DNA of 7,242 nucleotides, from the IMG/VR virus record IMGVR_UViG_2690316028_000008. The stretch is one strand, 5' to 3'. The notes under the pieces were generated by a model. It did no database searches and was not told the DNA's origin. It saw only the letters and a list, made by a program, of their open reading frames with translations. Made by a program: the position numbers and the translations under genes. Position 1 is the stretch's first letter; the number at the start of each line of letters is the position of its first letter. Positions 1 through 7,237 of the stretch are shown one piece after another. The stretch is from a virus. Its lineage: Duplodnaviria; Heunggongvirae; Uroviricota; Caudoviricetes.

Positions 1-157
1 CCTCTGACTGAGAGTTTACTCACTTAGCCGCGTGTCCACTATTGCTGGGTAAGATCACACATAGTAGCCTTTTAATTTGTATAAGTAGCAGCAGAGCCGA
101 AGTGCAAGGAAAACGTTGTGAGACGATGACGATATACAGAGCAATCATATATAATAT

Positions 158-182
158 GAAGAAAGAGCCGTGCTTGCGGCTC
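158..182 (-). terminator. Candidate rho-independent terminator downstream of the OLD-family gene
   Basis: Inverted repeat GAGCCG (165..170) / CGGCTC (177..182) with a 6-nt loop. On the minus strand it starts 7 nt after the TAA stop (192..190) of the OLD-family gene and is followed by TTTCTTC (164..158). The stem is short (6 bp, 7 with a G-U pair) and the T-tract is interrupted, so confidence is only moderate. Confidence 0.5.
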
Positions 183-189
183 CAAAATG

Positions 190-1977
190 TTATAATTTCG
201 CATATATAGCATTAAACCAAGTTAATGTCTCGCCTTTTGCATCACTTGCAGTGAGCATTTGATAACTCATTTTTCCTGTAGCAAATTTATTTATCTTCTT
301 CTTCGCTTTACTTTCATTATAACGTGTTAAAGCAGATACCTCTGTTGATACATCTGTCGTATCATCTATGGTTATGTTTACACCAAACACCGCCTGAATA
401 GCATCAGGATGTAAATAATTTTCCATTTCCCTTTTTTCAGTCATGAATGCTATGGAACCATCATTTCTAGCATTTACTGACTTACATTCTTTTTCATACT
501 GAGGAGGGATGGCAACATCTCTATCATAGATGTGAACCTCAGGTTTATTTAGAATTTTTAAGTCATTATTATTAACCCAATCTTTAAGAGTATGTCCCCC
601 CATTGGAATGAAAACTATACGCGGATCATTTATCATATCAGGAACATTTGGAACACCTTGGTCGAGATAAATTTTACCGATATTCCTTAAAAAGTTTATA
701 TCATTAGGGCCTTCAACGCATACAAGAACAGATGCCCTACTATCAGGGTATACGCCAAGATCATTCGCTATGTTCTTTAGCACATCATCATTACCATTTT
801 TAACCTCTAAACCATCATCGAGTGTTCGGGTTATATGGCGTAGAGATTCTGTAGGTATCTTTTCCACAAGTGCAGGGACGTGGGTGGTAATCAATACTTG
901 GCATTTATCAGCATTTGCTAATTCTTGAAATGCATCAATAAGAAGTCTTTGATTAGATGGGTGTTGAGATGTTTCAGGTTCTTCAATTGCATAAATAACT
1001 CCTTTATCTGGGAATTCTTTTTGCAATCTTTCTGCTTCCGCTTTAAAAAAACTAATCAGGACTAAACGTCTAACACCACTACCACGTTTATTGATAGCTA
1101 TTCCTCTATCATCTTCCAATGTTAGCTTGAAAATATTTTCCCACTTAGGTTCCACTTTAAACTTTGGGATTAACCCGGCAGCAAGATTAGGAGATATATC
1201 ATGTAAATGTTTAATTGTGTTTTCAGCCACTTCAACTGCATGTTCTTTTACGCTTTCTTTAATGGATTCAAGTTGAATGTCAATCTTCTGCAATGCTGTT
1301 TGAACCGCTGACTTCATAGGATCCTGTACTTCTGATTCTTCATCGGTACTCGGCCTGTCTGCGCGGAATAATGCAAAGTGAGGGAGTTTGTCATATATTT
1401 TTTCACAAATAACCTTGCCCTCCTCAGCATTTAATTTAACGAAGATTTCTTTAAGCTTTAAATCTCCAATTTTCCTGTAAATTTCTTGTCTTAAACTAAC
1501 ATTGGACCTTTTATCAGCTCCATCAACACCAATAGATTCGGCAATTACTTTAAGTTCATCATTTTTTTTAGCAAGTAAAGATTTCGCGCCTTTTGCTGAG
1601 GGAGCCATACATTTAGCTTGAACGCTGCTAGATCCCTTACCTTTTGCAAATACTCTATATATTTCTAGCTTTCCATTACTATTTAATAAATATTCTTCTT
1701 TAAGGTTAGTTATAGATGTGGCATCCAAAACTATAGGTATATCAGCTCCTGAAAAGATACATCCAATTGACACGTCTTCATTTTCCACGCTATCGACACA
1801 TTTATCGGTAGCATCATATTTACATAGTTTATGTTCAAAGAAGACACCAAATGCGTCTAAGATAGTTGTTTTACCAACATCATTACGACCAACTAATGCA
1901 GTTAGTGAGTTAATGTCAATGCTATGTTCTCCATGATAGCCACGAAAGTTCTATAAGATTAGTTTTTCAAGTTTCAT
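190..1977 (-). pseudogene. OLD-family ABC-type ATPase + TOPRIM nuclease (class-1-like, stand-alone), frame interrupted by an in-frame TAG at codon 9
   Basis: The uninterrupted ORF 190..1788 (532 aa in the track, GTG-initiated) continues in the same frame upstream to ATG 1977..1975. That ATG has a GGAG Shine-Dalgarno (1987..1984) 6 nt upstream. My hand translation of 1977..1789 is MKLEKLIL*NFRGYHGEHSIDINSLTALVGRNDVGKTTILDAFGVFFEHKLCKYDATDKCVDS. The NFRG strand and Walker A (GRNDVGKT, 1890..1867) typical of OLD/ABC-type ATPases therefore lie upstream of the track ORF, separated from the ATG by TAG at 1953..1951. Downstream motifs are the ABC-signature-like KRGSGVRRL, Walker B VIYAIEEPE and H-loop ITTH. 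A C-terminal TOPRIM follows: VCVEGPND (Glu codon 714..712), IYDRD and EMENYL. No helicase or other partner gene is adjacent. Confidence 0.8.
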
Positions 1978-1983
1978 AAAAAT

Positions 1984-2033
1984 CTCCATTTTTAAAAATT
2001 AAAATTTTATTTTTTAAAACTTACGCATTCGAA
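1984..2033 (-). promoter_or_regulatory. Candidate sigma70-like promoter plus RBS of the OLD-family gene
   Basis: Minus strand reads TTCGAA (2033..2028), 18 nt, TAAAAT (2009..2004), about 20 nt upstream of GGAG (1987..1984) and ATG 1977. The region is so AT-rich that such hexamers arise easily. The 340-bp gap to the upstream gene is the main argument for an independent promoter. Confidence 0.25.
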
Positions 2034-2317
2034 AAAACATTTGATTTTGTTGTATTCGAAGTAACAAGAACAATTTATAAAATTAGTTCAATCGAAGTCT
2101 TGGGTAAGACGCTTTTTCTCTTTAACAAAACGGATAACTACGCATTGGACAATAGATACTTTAGGAAACACGCGGAAAAATTGTAACGTTTTGCTCATTC
2201 TAGACCTGATATTCCTTCAAATTAGCAAGTTCGAGAGATAAGGGGAAATTACGATAGTCTACCAGAATCATTTCACACCTGCTCTAAACAATATGCAGAA
2301 AATAATATATGTATTTA

Positions 2318-2980
2318 TTAGTAAAGTTCTCCAGTTCCCTGATCTACACGTTTATAGAAATCAGAAAAATTACATGGGTCAGATATAACTGAGTTTTTAT
2401 CACTACGAAAATCAAATTCTATTTTTTTTATAAGATCAATGGCTGGTATAGTCGAATTTAAAGGGATTTTTTTATAGTTTCTAATTCTGTGATATTCAAT
2501 TGAGTCTAAGTCTACTTCAATCGCTTTATTACCAAAATAATAAAAATGATCTGAAATCAACACGTTATTAGAGCTAGTATCTCGTTCAAGATTTGTCATG
2601 TTAAATGAACCATCAGCATTGCTATGATGAGAATCTTCTTGTATCCATTCATTGTTTTCATTTTGATGGTAGATATTATCGCCCAGAATTTGTACATGAC
2701 TACCATTTCTAGCAGGCTTTTTGAGAGAGAACCTGGTATCCTCCCAATAACCATTGAAACTAATTTTTTCTGAAACTTTCATTAATAGGATACATTTTTT
2801 TTTAGCTGATTTTAAATTGGCTCCACCAACTCCGAGTATCCAATCACCCACTTTAGCTGACTTTCTAATTCCAGGTTTGCATGTTGCCAAGGTACAACTT
2901 CCATGAAATGGATTAGGTGCAAAACCAAAGTCTCTCGTTATTGCATAAACATAAAGGTGTGAGTTGGGATCAATTAGCAT
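2318..2980 (-). CDS. Nmad2-family protein (nucleotide modification associated domain 2), biochemical function unknown
   Basis: 220-aa ORF. ATG 2980 is preceded by GGTGG and overlaps the upstream gene's stop by 7 nt. The N-terminal block YVYAITRDFGFAPNPFHGSCTLATCKPGIRKSAKVGDWILG matches the signature I recall for the Nmad2 family (GFAPNP...CTLA.CKP.IR...GDW). That family was defined by comparative genomics of DNA-modification gene neighbourhoods (Iyer, Aravind and colleagues, 2013). The assignment rests on motif memory plus context. Confidence 0.6.
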   Translation of the reverse strand: MLIDPNSHLYVYAITRDFGFAPNPFHGSCTLATCKPGIRKSAKVGDWILGVGGANLKSAKKKCILLMKVSEKISFNGYWEDTRFSLKKPARNGSHVQILGDNIYHQNENNEWIQEDSHHSNADGSFNMTNLERDTSSNNVLISDHFYYFGNKAIEVDLDSIEYHRIRNYKKIPLNSTIPAIDLIKKIEFDFRSDKNSVISDPCNFSDFYKRVDQGTGELY

Positions 2981-3465
2981 ACGACATTTCCACCTTGAAC
3001 TTTATCACGATCCGTACCATCAGGTTTTTCAAAGGAAGTTTTACCTTCTAGTGCGTTGATAATGGCATCACTTCTCCAGGCCACTATAGAGGTTGCATAC
3101 TTTTCGAGATTCTCTGGTAGTTTTACATCGCCTTTTAACCCATTTTCATATACACCTATGATTGGTTTTCCAAGTTGATGAGCTACTTGAATTTCCCAGT
3201 TTACCCAAGGTCTAGTATGTGTCTCTTTCCCGATAACAACTATAACTTGACTAGCCCACCTCATTTTCATTCTAAGTAAACGTGCAATCGTTCGGTCACT
3301 AAGTTTTTTTTCCTCAACTCGTCGCTGGTTTTCAGGTTTCATTCTAATAGAACTATTGCGTAAATGATAACCTTTTGCTGCAGCTAAACGAGAAACTCCA
3401 TCAACACTCGCGTCGTCTTTATGATGATGGCTAACAAAAACATTTTTCTTAATTTCTTTAACCAT
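2974..3465 (-). CDS. TIR-like domain protein of the ThsB / DUF1863 (MTH538-like) type
   Basis: 163-aa ORF. ATG 3465 has AGGA 7 nt upstream. KNVFVSHHHKDD and QVIVVIGKETHTRPWVNWEIQVAHQLGKPIIGVYEN align well by eye with Bacillus Thoeris ThsB as I recall it (KRVFFSFHYQD ... VTCVLIGSQTFNRRWVRYEIMKSIEKGNKIIGIHIN). The match includes the conserved Glu of the W..(W/Y)EI motif. Confidence 0.75.
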   Translation of the reverse strand: MVKEIKKNVFVSHHHKDDASVDGVSRLAAAKGYHLRNSSIRMKPENQRRVEEKKLSDRTIARLLRMKMRWASQVIVVIGKETHTRPWVNWEIQVAHQLGKPIIGVYENGLKGDVKLPENLEKYATSIVAWRSDAIINALEGKTSFEKPDGTDRDKVQGGNVVC

Positions 3466-3486
3466 TTTTAAATCCTTTGTAATTTG

Positions 3487-4518
3487 CTAATTATAAAATA
3501 ATTCTATATTATTGCTTTGATAATGGTATTTTTGTTTAGGCCTTTTATTGTTAAATTTAGTTCGGCATCTTTTATCTATCTCGCATGCACCACTATTTTC
3601 CATGTCCATTAAGGTGTAAACTCTTTCTTCTTTAGGCAGGAAATGGAATATTTCATCCATGTTCCAATTTTCTCTATACTTTTCAGCGATGTTATTTTGG
3701 TTTATAGTGAACCAGAATAAACACTCTTCGCTATTCATTCCATCTCTATTAGAAAAAATCCAATTAATTCCTCTTTCACAACCAGGACCTGAAATAACAA
3801 AGTTCAATTCTGTAAACGGAAAGTTGGGTATGTATGTCAGATCTATGAAAATTTGATATGCTAGAAAATCCCCAATCCCTGAGAATGATTTTAAATGTTC
3901 AAAAACTTCGAACTGATTTCCTGATGATTTTACACCATTAACGATTTTATCTTGGTTATAATAAACAAATTTTATCATTCTAATTACCATATCATTTTCC
4001 GGTATTCCTTCTATATTTTTTAAGTATTTTCCGAAGTTAAACTTCGGACCTCCTAAAATATAGGCTGCACTAAAAAATACGTAGCCTGGTTTTTTTAATG
4101 ATATGTTTATTGTCTTTTCTCTGATCTTTTCATTGATGTCGCGAATAGTCATTTTTGTGAAATCAAAGGGCGCATCAAGTTCATTTAATGTATCGCTTTT
4201 ATTTATTACTCTAAACAAAAATGAATTGAGTATTTTATTTTCATAAGTTAATTTATTGTTGTTTGTTATATTTTTCAATAACCATTTGGTTTCTTTGTCC
4301 CATGTTCTTTTAGTATTTACAAATTTATAGTTTCTCAATATTTTGTCGTCTGTCCAATATGGCGGAAGGTTAAGTATCTCTTTCTTGTAATATATGGATG
4401 TCCTCTCTCGTTGATGATAAAACCATTCCTTGATAACAGCTTCATTCAAGGTAGGTTTAGCGGTTTTAATTTTCATTTCTCTGACATTACAAAAAAGTTG
4501 ATCGTTTTTACTGTTCAC
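3487..4518 (-). CDS. aGPT-Pplase-like protein (alpha-glutamyl/putrescinyl thymine pyrophosphorylase family; putative DNA base hypermodification protein)
   Basis: 343-aa ORF. The start is either GTG 4518 (AAGG 9 nt upstream, overlapping the kinase stop by 11 nt) or ATG 4476 (residue 15). The block IYYKKEILNLPPYWTDDKILRNYKFVNTKRTWDKETKWL resembles the conserved N-terminal signature I recall for aGPT-Pplase proteins (PWT.D.IL...KF.N..R..D..T). The assignment rests on one motif block plus gene context. Confidence 0.55.
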   Translation of the reverse strand: MNSKNDQLFCNVREMKIKTAKPTLNEAVIKEWFYHQRERTSIYYKKEILNLPPYWTDDKILRNYKFVNTKRTWDKETKWLLKNITNNNKLTYENKILNSFLFRVINKSDTLNELDAPFDFTKMTIRDINEKIREKTINISLKKPGYVFFSAAYILGGPKFNFGKYLKNIEGIPENDMVIRMIKFVYYNQDKIVNGVKSSGNQFEVFEHLKSFSGIGDFLAYQIFIDLTYIPNFPFTELNFVISGPGCERGINWIFSNRDGMNSEECLFWFTINQNNIAEKYRENWNMDEIFHFLPKEERVYTLMDMENSGACEIDKRCRTKFNNKRPKQKYHYQSNNIELFYN

Positions 4519-5065
4519 TTAATAATACCTTTTCGAAGAAATGTTTAAAACTATCAATTCCGTTCACATTGTTGTCAAAATGATATTCTGATTTTGTTTT
4601 ATTCTCAGTGACATACTTGTCGATTTCGTATTTTTTATAATTATTATTTTCCCGTTCTATATGTACTATAGTGAACTGATTGTTCTTACACCATGCGAAT
4701 TCTTCATTTGATCTTATGTCAGTAATTATTATATTTTTATTCGTCCCTCCATTTTTTTCTAAAATTTTCAACTCTTCTGATAGCATTCTAATAAATATTT
4801 TTTCTTCAATTTTCCTTAGGCTGTCTAAGCTCAGCCATATATCTCTTGGTGAATGGCTGATAAAGTCGCCGGTAGGTAAGGTTATATTGAGTGGTAACAT
4901 TTTATTTTCAGGTGGGTAATCCTTTTCCATCCAAGGATAAATATAATTGGCCAATTTTTTGAGTTGATCGCTAAATGATAATCTAATAAATCCATAGTTG
5001 GATATCAGATAATTGGCAAGAAAGTCTTTTCCACTACCCGATATGCCCATGAATGCAATTTTCAT
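4508..5065 (-). CDS. P-loop kinase, deoxynucleoside-monophosphate-kinase-like (candidate 5-hm-dNMP kinase or 5-hmdU DNA kinase)
   Basis: 185-aa ORF. ATG 5065 sits in an ATGA overlap with the upstream TGA stop (5064..5062). The P-loop GISGSGKD is at residues 7-14. IIITDIRSNEEFAW resembles the D(V/I)R..NE motif of phage T4 gp1-type dNMP kinases. The substrate (free nucleotide or DNA-borne 5-hmdU) cannot be read from the sequence. Confidence 0.7.
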   Translation of the reverse strand: MKIAFMGISGSGKDFLANYLISNYGFIRLSFSDQLKKLANYIYPWMEKDYPPENKMLPLNITLPTGDFISHSPRDIWLSLDSLRKIEEKIFIRMLSEELKILEKNGGTNKNIIITDIRSNEEFAWCKNNQFTIVHIERENNNYKKYEIDKYVTENKTKSEYHFDNNVNGIDSFKHFFEKVLLSEQ

Positions 5066-6147
5066 AGACGGTCCTTATTAGAATTATTAAAATAATTAGA
5101 AGTTACGCTTAGATTGAAATCATTGCTTAACTTAGTTTTTAACACTATTGGTTGATTGAATCTTTCCTGGAAAATATATGATAGAGCTGCTTCTGCATAT
5201 CCCCAAAGTAAATTCCTTTCAGTTTCTACAAAGTGTTTAATAAATATTTTTTTTAGATTTTCGGTTTCCATATCTATTGTGTCTATTTTATGTTCATTTT
5301 CTGTTATTATTCTTTCAAGGAATGAAACTATATCACAGAATAATGATTTTATATTTTGTAACGATGGAGGGAATGATATTTCATCATCGTTTATCAAATC
5401 TGTCATTTGTTCTTCTTTTCTTTCGTATATTTCATTGGCTTGTCCTACTCTATCATCATATATATGAAGATTTGTTACTGATTGATGTAAGTATCCCAGT
5501 TTAATCTCGCTATCAACTTCCCTCTGTAATATTGAAAGTACTATCTCTTGAAGTAAACTAAACTCGAAAAGATTTATATTGCTCACTCCAAATATTAGAT
5601 CGCCGCTTCTTTGAACTATTTTAATGTTTAAATTTTTGTCAGGAGTGATAAAGAAATGAATTAAGTTATTACAAGGAATATCGACACTATGTTCTATGTT
5701 GTATACTTTTATGAGGCTTTCATTCGTATCTCTGTCAGGCATGTATAAGCTAATGACTGCTCTTCTTGTAAATATTCCTTCTTTTTTGAATTGTTGCACG
5801 ACATTCTCAAGTTGCCCGTGAGCGTATAGTCTTTCCCCATAAGCTGCTCGCCAAATGACACCATCATCTGAGTATTTAGGCGCTCTTGGTAAAAAAAAAT
5901 TTAGATATGGTTTAATTCTGTTGTCGCCAGCAAAAACCCATATAGCTTCAGCAAATGTGGAAAATATATTATTTTTTCGACCCGCTAAACTTAAATGCCT
6001 TGATCTAGGGTTTCGTAAGATCATACTAACATCATAAATAGTTATAGCATCCCCATTCCTTGTCGAAATACGAACTCCTTCATTAAGCACTTTTTCTAGG
6101 AGTTTCATTATTACATCGTTAATAGTTTCTCCGTAAATGACGTGCAT
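5062..6147 (-). CDS. Thymidylate synthase-fold enzyme, likely pyrimidine (dUMP or dCMP) hydroxymethylase homolog with C-terminal extension
   Basis: The track ORF starts at TTG 6153. I prefer ATG 6147, which has GAGG 8 nt upstream, giving 361 aa. Motifs are collinear with E. coli ThyA as I recall it: RNGDAI (RTGTGT), AEAIWVFAGD (ELLWFLQGD), AYGERL (VYGKQW), TRRAVISLY (SRRIIVSAW), DIPCNNLIHFFI (APCHAFFQFYV; Cys codon TGT 5673..5671), QRSGDLIFGVSNIN (QRSCDVFLGLPFNI) and LHIYDD (THLYSN). Confidence 0.85.
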   Translation of the reverse strand: MHVIYGETINDVIMKLLEKVLNEGVRISTRNGDAITIYDVSMILRNPRSRHLSLAGRKNNIFSTFAEAIWVFAGDNRIKPYLNFFLPRAPKYSDDGVIWRAAYGERLYAHGQLENVVQQFKKEGIFTRRAVISLYMPDRDTNESLIKVYNIEHSVDIPCNNLIHFFITPDKNLNIKIVQRSGDLIFGVSNINLFEFSLLQEIVLSILQREVDSEIKLGYLHQSVTNLHIYDDRVGQANEIYERKEEQMTDLINDDEISFPPSLQNIKSLFCDIVSFLERIITENEHKIDTIDMETENLKKIFIKHFVETERNLLWGYAEAALSYIFQERFNQPIVLKTKLSNDFNLSVTSNYFNNSNKDRL

Positions 6148-6369
6148 AAACAAAACCTCATGCTATAAAAACATCTTTTTAGTTGATATAGTTTATTGGG
6201 CCTAATCCAGAATTTGGTCCAGCTATGATCTGGACTAACCGGATAGCACGTTTCAATCTCTTGCCTCTAAGAACAGGCTCGAACGTGATAGCCAATTGGC
6301 TTCCCACTTAGCAAGTGAGACCTCGACCCACGCTACCGCCCTCAGTTGCATAGGCACTGCGTTTGTATG

Positions 6370-6408
6370 AACATTTACAAATGTTACTCATGTTATGGGT
6401 TTGGTCAA
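6370..6408 (-). promoter_or_regulatory. Candidate promoter with overlapping palindromic operator upstream of the five-gene operon
   Basis: Minus strand reads TTGACC (6408..6403), 16 nt, TAACAT (6386..6381). The -10 element overlaps an inverted repeat AACATTT-AC-AAATGTT (6370..6385, perfect 7-bp arms). This would give a leader of about 225 nt before ATG 6147. It is the best sigma70-like match I could find by eye in 6154..6450, but it is unverified. Confidence 0.25.
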
Positions 6409-7057
6409 TCTGGCAATAAGATAATTACGAAACTTTAGACTTATTACTTAAGTGGAGGTGGCGCGAGTCGCTAGCGAGTAAGACTGTCTCTTATATGTAC
6501 CAGAAGCACAACTGACGATGCTCCAAAATCATAGTCACCGCTGCGTAGCAAGCTGTGGCCTCTCGCTACTCCCGGGTGCCCCAGTTACAACGTTGTGGGT
6601 TGCATAAGAAATCTGTCCCGCCGGATTAGAGTGGTGGTGGATTACTGACTGTACTCTGCGTTCAATACAGAGACAGCCCGGAACAGGCAGTAATTGATGC
6701 CGGAACGAGACTATTTAAGAACAAACCGCCCCCGGTTAGCAGGATCGTCTCGGCCGGCAGGAAAGCATGCTAACACCTACATGAAGTCCCTGTCAGTGCA
6801 GGCCCCAGACTCAACACCACCAATCTACTTTTCACCACTGCGAAGTAAGGGGCGCTACGCCCGGTTATGCAGGGGCAGTTTTTCTCCTGTGCGCTTTTCG
6901 TTCCTCTATCGGCTTCCTGTTAATCGTTTCCCAACACAACCCGTCCCGCAAGGGTAAATGGCACGCATGCTGCGCCCTTGCAGGACAGAACGATGTCGGG
7001 AAAGCGAACCGTCAGGCGATACGAAGACGAAAATCACACACTGACGGAGAAAAAACG

Positions 7058-7237
7058 ATGACGATTTCCCTGCATACCACCCGGACAAGCGCCCCTAACA
7101 CCGCAGCGGCGACCAGCGTATCCCCGCTGGACCCGTCAGGCTCCTCAAAAACGAAATTTTCTAAAACCAGAACCGACATTTACCGTAAGCGTCGTCTGAG
7201 TACCGTCTGGTCCCGAATCCAGGATCCTGTAACTTAA
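7058..7237 (+). CDS. Hypothetical small protein (59 aa)
   Basis: ATG 7058 is preceded by GGAGA (7046..7050) at 7-nt spacing, followed by 59 codons and TAA 7235..7237. It falls below the 60-aa cut-off of the supplied track. Hand translation: MTISLHTTRTSAPNTAAATSVSPLDPSGSSKTKFSKTRTDIYRKRRLSTVWSRIQDPVT. The N-terminal half is Ser/Thr-rich and the C-terminal half is basic. I recognise no family, and it may not be a real gene. Confidence 0.3.
   Translation: MTISLHTTRTSAPNTAAATSVSPLDPSGSSKTKFSKTRTDIYRKRRLSTVWSRIQDPVT

Follow-up and report, generated by a model that had tools for sequence, protein, structure and literature searches.

The five-gene operon and the OLD-family gene that lie side by side in the 7,242-nucleotide stretch of DNA analysed here (the window) are most probably independent anti-phage genes, brought together by accident on an integrative conjugative element (ICE). 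We put the probability of this account as a whole at roughly 0.85. It further holds that window bases 57-7184 are the cargo end of the ICE and that OLD entered at the point where the operon meets a convergent TIR/SLOG cluster; neither unit would depend on the other. The original prediction had offered two readings, a restriction-modification-like (R-M-like) pairing of a DNA-modifying operon with a nuclease, or two stacked defence systems. The second is borne out, because a homolog of the operon, DS-4, was cloned without OLD and OLD behaves as an autonomous class-1-like cassette in unrelated contexts. The first is not, because homologs of the two units are independent and their adjacency is found in one mobile-element lineage only.

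A five-gene operon of the DS-4 family

The predicted layout was recovered: genes for a thymidylate-synthase-family (TS-like) protein, a dNMP-kinase-like protein, HMUDK_hel, a TIR protein and Nmad2 are followed, after 340 bp, by OLD, all six co-oriented on the minus strand (Table 1). The TS-like gene probably starts at the ATG at 6147. The nearest solved relative of its product is MilA, a CMP 5-hydroxymethylase (E 2e-14); the catalytic Cys aligns between the two, and the protein is probably a pyrimidine-nucleotide 5-hydroxymethylase. Together with the P-loop kinase it would make a 5-hydroxymethyl-pyrimidine nucleotide, and HMUDK_hel may act on the hydroxymethyl group; we infer these activities, like all biochemistry of the operon and OLD, from homology. 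The TIR protein matches PADLOC ThsB1 (PDLC00418) over its full length (E 4e-73), and its PDB matches are ThsB/TIR structures. Nmad2 has a predicted PUA-like fold (YTH/EVE/ASCH). The end of the TIR gene overlaps the start of the Nmad2 gene, and these two form the conserved core pair of the operon. Neither PADLOC nor NCBIfam holds specific models for the TS-like protein, the kinase, HMUDK_hel or Nmad2, and Pfam detects no 5-hmdU DNA kinase (PF18748), PLP or radical-SAM domain in the operon proteins.

Table 1. Features of the window (position 1 is its first base)
Feature	Position	Strand	Evidence or remark
End of IS3-type insertion sequence	1..56		from annotation
Terminator-like hairpin followed by a T-run	164..183	-	just past the OLD stop codon; consensus match only
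OLD-family (class-1-like) gene, ABC ATPase plus Toprim, putative nuclease, pseudogene, 595 codons	1977..190	-	AAA_15, E 2e-61
Amber TAG at codon 9 (MKLEKLIL*NFRGY)	1953..1951	-	AAG (Lys) in intact alleles
Spacer, exactly 340 bp	1978..2317	-	between Nmad2 and OLD
Nmad2, 220 aa	2980..2318	-	PF18753, E 3e-64
ThsB-type TIR protein, 163 aa	3465..2974	-	PF08937
HMUDK_hel / aGPT-Pplase clade 1 helical protein, 343 aa	4518..3487	-	PF18723, E 4e-53
P-loop dNMP-kinase-like protein, 185 aa	5065..4508	-	PF21448
TS-like gene	6153/6147..5062	-	PF00303, E 1e-16
ardC 5' stub, 59 codons	7058..7237	+

The operon belongs to the DS-4 family, a defence system already described (working id NTTI; DeWeirdt, Mahoney and Laub, Science 2026, PMC13092281). 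DS-4 shares all five genes and their order, with 77%, 71% and 77% identity for the TS, kinase and HMUDK_hel proteins, respectively. The window Nmad2 has 81% identity to P0127, its counterpart on an island whose TS and HMUDK_hel genes have DS-4 lengths. The window operon differs in being another allele, in lying on an ICE instead of an AlpA/DUF3987 island, and in having an OLD pseudogene inserted after it. When the five DS-4 genes were cloned by themselves in MG1655, without OLD, they gave weak defence, against lambda only (~8.6-fold, -log EOP 0.93, smaller plaques; PMC13092281). The window's own Nmad2, WP_023143489.1, is among the predicted defence genes of the same study (PMC13092281).

Was the operon rightly called a DNA-hypermodification module? 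The thymidine hypermodification clusters of phages ViI, M6 and phiW-14 (Lee et al. 2021, PMC8989533) likewise combine a TS-family hydroxymethylase, a nucleotide kinase and an aGPT-Pplase-family protein, and HMUDK_hel shares ~31% identity with homologs in ViI-like phages. However, the characterised phage transferase belongs to clade 2 whereas the window HMUDK_hel belongs to clade 1, the phage clusters lack Nmad2 and TIR, and the window element is cellular, not viral. The label is doubtful, since Nmad2 has no homolog among 50,697 phage records and the core of the operon is the SLOG-associated pair of TIR and Nmad2. A core of this kind, with SLOG effectors, suggests nucleotide signalling of a Thoeris-like type, not the marking of self DNA. 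The operon TIR resembles the ThsB of type I Thoeris (ThsB TIR plus ThsA SIR2-SLOG) in its full-length ThsB1 match, but it invariably comes with Nmad2 and in many cases with nucleotide-modifying enzymes, which classical Thoeris lacks. A literature search on Nmad2 found nothing relevant, and none was found that joins Thoeris, thymidylate synthase and ThsB.

An inactivated, self-contained OLD cassette

OLD would be a self-contained class-1-like ATP-dependent Toprim nuclease. Its architecture is that of the class 1 proteins (6P74, P2 Old), in which an ABC ATPase at the N-terminus is joined to a Toprim domain at the C-terminus that has a conserved set of acidic residues. Across 37 homologs the Walker A/B and H-loop residues (G30/K36, E332/E333, H366) are invariant, as are the Toprim motifs E422 (CVEGPND), D485xD487 and E517/E519, although Pfam itself returned no match for the Toprim domain. 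The Thermus scotoductus OLD (6P74) is the best PDB match by sequence and, with the AF2 model, by fold; the full-length fold also matches GajA and Eco8 OLD. The likeness to 6P74 has its limits: the two proteins are just 16% identical, the nuclease role is predicted, and the reading frame of the window copy, intact in class 1 OLD, is interrupted by the amber codon.

No obligate partner accompanies the ATPase and Toprim domains, and close relatives have no fixed partner gene. The class 2 UvrD-like helicase, the class 3 retron RT/ncRNA and the class 4 split Toprim (PARIS) are all missing as obligate partners, and neighbour clustering of 103 OLD loci yielded no universal partner. PADLOC did report a match to AriA of PARIS (E 7e-52); we rejected this assignment because the match is limited to the generic AAA_15 ATPase, AriB/DUF4435 is absent and PARIS structures are not among the fold matches.

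The window copy is a null allele, in which the ancestral AAG (Lys9) has become an amber codon; the broken frame noticed originally is thus real, and RefSeq annotates the gene as a pseudogene. It is scarcely credible that this copy still functions by amber readthrough or by restart downstream. The remaining 586 codons are open, and some pipelines do annotate proteins of 574-576 aa from residues 20 or 22. A restart, however, would cost the protein residues 1-21, which in the model cover the leading conserved beta strands of its ATPase head and include M1, L3, N10 and R12, all invariant in the family, and there is no ATG, GTG or TTG between the stop and Walker A. Along with the RefSeq call, unrelated disabling lesions in two sister copies speak against retained function.

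Three independent inactivating lesions of OLD were observed in the ICE lineage, and the operon is intact in all copies. Three lesions among five distinct ICE alleles compare with ~2 internal stops in ~100 copies elsewhere (Fisher p = 5e-4, or p = 0.014 counting all incomplete copies), although the ICE alleles are few and are not independent samples. This excess would fit a special relation confined to the ICE, in which OLD was recruited as an extra effector or is incompatible with the operon product and hence repeatedly inactivated. We regard such recruitment or conflict as unlikely: apart from the small and non-independent sample, intact OLD alleles persist beside an intact operon in Klebsiella and Erwinia. 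Stand-alone OLD nucleases are, moreover, costly to some hosts anyway, so that loss of OLD needs no special partner; P2 Old kills recBC mutants.

Independent distribution and the insertion junction

The window is homologous to the conjugative element from base 57 to 7184, the latter inside the ardC stub. Relatives of the element are located near tRNA-Asn and encode ArdC, MobC and a VirB-type secretion system. In E. coli, Klebsiella, Erwinia, Atlantibacter and Phytobacter the arrangement of operon and OLD is conserved at 95-99% identity; this could speak for a link between the two units but is most simply explained by one recently spread element. The AT-rich compositional island said to unite the operon and OLD is present, with 30-38% GC in every gene of the set versus ~50% to the right of 6200. 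GC3 fails to distinguish OLD from the operon, with ~0.24 in OLD and in three operon genes and 0.29-0.32 in the remaining two. An Rfam scan of the window returned zero RNA families.

Surveys from both sides showed that OLD and operon homologs occur independently, with adjacency confined to one mobile-element lineage. At least 576 species carry an Nmad2 relative; among the best 80 species-level loci, just two have an OLD homolog at a distance of 7 kb or less. Operon genes were present at 2 of 100 viral and metagenomic OLD-centred loci, both with an OLD at least 98% identical to that of the window, and all four co-occurring loci represent the same conjugative-element module (at least 98% identity). 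Naive genome counts tell another story, and this is a caution: in E. coli, OLD stands beside the operon in 12 of 16 operon-bearing genomes (p ~1e-31), which looks overwhelmingly significant. All 12 genomes, however, carry one 99.9% identical mobile segment, and the link vanishes once lineages are counted.

Neighbours are unrelated across OLD homologs of 83-98% identity. A relative with 91% identity adjoins a type II R-M pair made up of a Dcm-like methylase and an MvaI/BcnI endonuclease, one with 87% protein identity lies beside the integrase of an E. coli prophage, and one with 83% identity is found among Serratia housekeeping genes. The operon, for its part, is present at 93.8% identity in four E. 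coli genomes where an Mrr_cat endonuclease and IS remnants fill the OLD slot; this Mrr-type gene in a variant ICE could be read as evidence of a "nuclease slot".

The boundaries of the insertion are visible in the spacer. Its length is exact and a GGAG precedes the OLD ATG, in agreement with the original description. The candidate promoter ascribed to OLD did not hold up, as a scan covering both the spacer and the full window found 28 promoter-like sites in the window versus 27.5 expected from shuffled sequence; an argument from an own promoter thus carries no weight in either direction. The part at ~1978-2268 travels with the OLD cassette, and only ~2284-2317 is common to operon copies without OLD, with homology to those copies stopping at ~2284-2311. 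No repeats, direct or inverted, were found on either side of the cassette that would show how it had been inserted. Other defence loci, such as BREX operons with extra genes, likewise show an autonomous nuclease gene lodged in a foreign system, either inside one of its modules or between two of them. Unlike those embedded genes, the window OLD occupies the intergenic space where two convergent units meet, has its own 5' region and shows no translational coupling.

These data largely refute an R-M-like pairing, in which the operon would write a modified base as a self mark and OLD would cut unmarked (or marked) DNA, as in Dnd, Ssp and Dpd systems, and we now consider it highly improbable. In its favour, the two units are adjacent and co-oriented, and a consensus scan found no terminator-like site between them, so read-through transcription from the operon into OLD is possible. 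HMUDK_hel has relatives in thymidine-hypermodifying phages (PMC8989533), and distant OLD homologs (44-49%) sit between the methylase and helicase of BREX-type-3-like operons, indicating that OLD can live within modification systems. A writer and its nuclease, however, should co-occur in independent lineages; here neither survey found co-occurrence beyond one ICE lineage, and each unit is also found in the absence of its neighbour. In addition, a five-gene DS-4 homolog defends without OLD, OLD relatives of 83-91% identity stand alone in unrelated contexts, and sister operon copies have an Mrr-type gene in place of OLD, or none. The triple loss of OLD beside a retained operon and the absence of Nmad2 from phage genomes weigh in the same direction.

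A TIR/SLOG cluster as the conserved partner

The conserved partner of the operon is a convergent TIR/SLOG (Thoeris-like) cluster, not OLD. In six Enterobacterales species without OLD, the operon ends 200-550 bp from such a cluster, and the same holds for the P0127 island. A SLOG-domain gene lies within 7 kb at 51 of the best 80 Nmad2 loci. In sister ICE copies a TIR_2 plus SLOG2 cluster is located just beyond OLD, and a Photobacterium species (L020) has a canonical ThsA directly after the five-gene operon; inside the window there is no ThsA or SLOG gene. The first gene of the neighbouring TIR/SLOG cluster (WP_023143484.1) is a predicted, not validated, defence gene in DeWeirdt et al. (PMC13092281).

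Going beyond accidental adjacency, we tentatively hypothesize that the DS-4 operon is not a DNA-marking module but half of a larger Thoeris-like system that is widespread, a possibility to which we give less than even confidence. The hydroxymethyl-pyrimidine nucleotide pathway (TS-like protein, kinase and HMUDK_hel) might supply or gate the signal of the ThsB-type TIR; at other loci the pathway would include MazG/MazG_C, UDG or dCTP-deaminase-like proteins. Nmad2 could then serve as a PUA-like reader of a modified base or nucleotide, with effectors encoded by the adjacent SLOG-TIR, SLOG-patatin or SIR2-SLOG genes. The OLD and Mrr-type genes would be interchangeable cargo, inserted where the two halves join.

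Taken together, OLD-family cassettes tend to insert inside or between other defence modules, such as a DS-4-type operon, an R-M pair or BREX-like operons. Adjacency alone therefore gives no ground for a new OLD class. The conserved TIR/SLOG partner and the predicted modified-base-reader fold of Nmad2 could matter more, as they offer a route to the mechanism of DS-4.

Gene layout and source element

Our re-analysis confirmed the gene description in the original prediction to the base, including the layout of the five operon genes, the 340-bp gap and the in-frame TAG at codon 9 of the OLD-family ATPase-Toprim gene; intact alleles of other genomes carry AAG at this codon. The candidate OLD promoter is the sole detail not upheld, as promoter-like sites are no commoner than in shuffled sequence. 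A homolog of the PF18723 protein is labelled aGPT-Pplase clade 1 in one phage record. The region between the operon start and ardC, which presumably houses the promoter and regulatory region of the operon, is about 900 bp long and of higher GC (~50%), with no long ORF and no Rfam match.

Features of the window and their positions
Feature	Position	Strand	Remark
End of IS3-type element	1-56		
OLD gene	1977..190	-	595 codons; ABC-ATPase head and Toprim tail
Amber codon of OLD	1953..1951	-	TAG, codon 9
Gap, Nmad2 to OLD	1978..2317		340 bp
Nmad2 protein	2980..2318	-	220 aa
ThsB-type TIR protein	3465..2974	-	163 aa
Helical protein	4518..3487	-	343 aa; PF18723, HMUDK_hel in the current Pfam copy
P-loop protein	5065..4508	-	185 aa; phage dNMP-kinase family
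Thymidylate-synthase-family (TS-like) protein	6153/6147..5062	-	
Region between operon start and ardC	6154-7057		
ardC stub	7058-7237		59 codons

Positions 57-7184 match a chromosomal segment at 99.9% identity in 12 of 5,426 complete E. coli genomes, in which OLD is already a pseudogene in the RefSeq annotation. This segment is the cargo end of an integrative conjugative element (ICE) carrying ArdC, MobC and type IV secretion genes; sister copies have a full VirB set and are located near tRNA-Asn. Because the window begins with an IS3-type end and homology to the ICE is lost at 7184 within ardC, rearrangements in the source genome must border the segment on both sides.

Distribution of OLD and the operon

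In the operon-side survey, an Nmad2 relative turned up in 576 species when one genome per species was scanned, and OLD was sought in the best 80 loci by tblastn and with a profile derived from 102 of its homologs. OLD was found within 7 kb of Nmad2 in only 2 of these best 80 (of 576), in Atlantibacter sp. RC6 and Phytobacter sp. V69, each being a 98-99% identical copy of the one ICE module. The OLD-side survey covered 100 loci that carry OLD homologs of 33-99% identity, 20 of them viral and 80 metagenomic; in 52, the sequence extended 4 kb or more upstream of OLD. Any operon gene was present in only 2 of the 100 loci, with OLD at least 98% identical in both.

OLD at 95-98% identity lies in the same ICE. 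At 91% identity its neighbours, on a small mobilisable island, are a Dcm-like methylase and an MvaI/BcnI endonuclease; at 87% protein identity it adjoins the integrase of an E. coli prophage, and at 83% it lies amid Serratia housekeeping genes. The operon occurs without OLD at 93.8% identity in four E. coli genomes. The OLD slot of this ICE variant is occupied by an Mrr_cat (modification-dependent type) restriction endonuclease (comparison loci L002, 10544-11428, and L003, 7327-8211), accompanied by IS30 and IS3 remnants.

A naive E. coli count places OLD in 12 of 16 operon-bearing genomes (p ~1e-31), but these 12 represent a single 99.9%-identical segment. The restriction-modification-like pairing proposed in the original prediction is not sustained and fails the refutation test set there: in the loci surveyed, homologs of the two units occur apart and meet only in one ICE module. 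The second option of that prediction, stacking of two independent defence systems, is the best-supported explanation for their adjacency, given that the operon family acts without OLD and that OLD relatives are found in unrelated contexts. In this reading, an autonomous class 1-like OLD nuclease, now dead in the window, was inserted beside a DS-4-type operon on a conjugative element.

The OLD cassette and its lesions

The Walker A, Walker B and H-loop motifs are invariant in 37 OLD homologs down to 49% identity, as are the Toprim Glu (CVEGPND), the DxD (YDRD) and a further acidic pair. The best match of the AlphaFold model (mean pLDDT 83.6) is the Thermus scotoductus class 1 OLD, followed by Gabija GajA and the retron Eco8 OLD. 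Intact full-length alleles at 98-99% identity are present in Klebsiella pneumoniae and E. coli. OLD is a stand-alone cassette. Separately, in L135, L158, L160, L182 and some 14 further metagenomic loci (14-18 of the 103 centred on OLD), BREX-type-3-like operons contain OLD homologs of 44-49% identity. The gene order there is DUF6079, an N6/N4 methylase of ~1000 aa with its stop codon overlapping the start of OLD, OLD, SNF2 helicase and PglZ.

OLD carries three unrelated disabling lesions within the ICE lineage (window 1951-1953; L017 4932-6696; L018 7467-9234). The Lys9 codon is an amber in the window and in many copies from E. coli and Klebsiella, the Atlantibacter copy lacks 23 bp at nt 105-127, and in Phytobacter an opal stands in place of Gly171 and the 3' end has been replaced. 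All these copies keep the five operon genes at full length. Outside the lineage, 100 of 116 OLD copies align over the full length as one unbroken match. The excess of lesions (p = 5e-4 to 0.014) is suggestive, and we treat it as a lead rather than a result because the alleles are few and related.

The operon and its TIR/SLOG neighbour

The operon is a known system, and there are experimental data on its family in the absence of OLD. A plasmid-borne E. coli unit of five genes was cloned in MG1655 by DeWeirdt, Mahoney and Laub (Science 2026, PMC13092281), who list it as DS-4 among their validated defence systems; against the three DS-4 protein sequences compared, the window proteins show 77%, 71% and 77% identity. 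The accession of the window's own Nmad2 is in their table of predicted defence genes. Lambda is the sole phenotype row for DS-4 (Table S7, PMC13092281), with plating ~8.6-fold lower and smaller plaques; therefore, the five genes act without OLD, though weakly. Each component of the locus falls in an already described family, and the finding as posed is known and ordinary.

The closest solved relative of the TS-like enzyme is the CMP 5-hydroxymethylase MilA (E 2e-14, versus 1e-6 for true thymidylate synthases), with the catalytic Cys aligned. The operon kinase belongs to the phage dNMP-kinase family, and HMUDK_hel shows ~31% identity to proteins from ViI-like phages, a group that hypermodifies thymidine (PMC8989533). 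No Nmad2 relative was found in 50,697 phage records. The Nmad2 model (pLDDT 74, pTM 0.76) resembles modified-base readers, namely YTH, EVE, ASCH and McrB-N domains.

In six Enterobacterales species with the five-gene operon and without OLD, 200-550 bp separate the operon end from a convergent cluster of SLOG3, TIR_2, ThsB-type TIRs and sometimes a patatin-SLOG2 fusion. The operon ends equally close to such a convergent cluster in an AlpA/DUF3987 island with DS-4-length genes (P0127; Nmad2 81% identical), and an equivalent (two ThsB TIRs, TIR_2, SLOG2) lies just past OLD in the ICE. Homology between the window and OLD-less operon copies ends at ~2284-2311, and homology of the OLD cassette to the copy in the restriction-modification island spans 131 to 2268. 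Therefore, OLD and most of the 340-bp spacer are an insertion at the junction of two modules that normally face each other. A convergent TIR/SLOG cluster, with SLOG2 or SLOG3, TIR_2, patatin-SLOG2 and ThsB TIRs among its genes, is near-constant 3' of the operon (L001 7986-11889, L005, a K. pneumoniae allele, 10033-13935, L197 9951-14993, L019/L021-L024/L026).

Among the 79 of the best 80 loci with a recovered Nmad2 ORF, the TIR-Nmad2 pair is near-universal (77-79), and 51 have a gene with a SLOG domain no more than 7 kb from Nmad2; MazG/MazG_C is present in 40, HMUDK_hel in 41, TS in 26 and UDG in 23. In Photobacterium chitinilyticum, a canonical ThsA (SIR2-STALD, PADLOC E 7e-204; L020 10764-12203) is directly 3' of the five genes on the same strand. 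The TIR/SLOG cluster thus looks like the operon's real conserved partner. Taken together, the enzyme relatives, the Nmad2 fold, its absence from phages and the TIR/SLOG association suggest a modified-nucleotide pathway, whose chemistry we infer, coupled to Thoeris-like signaling rather than a self-marking writer. Several of these points exceed the published description of the operon, and its TIR/SLOG partnership, together with the predicted reader fold of Nmad2, offers a modest side lead.
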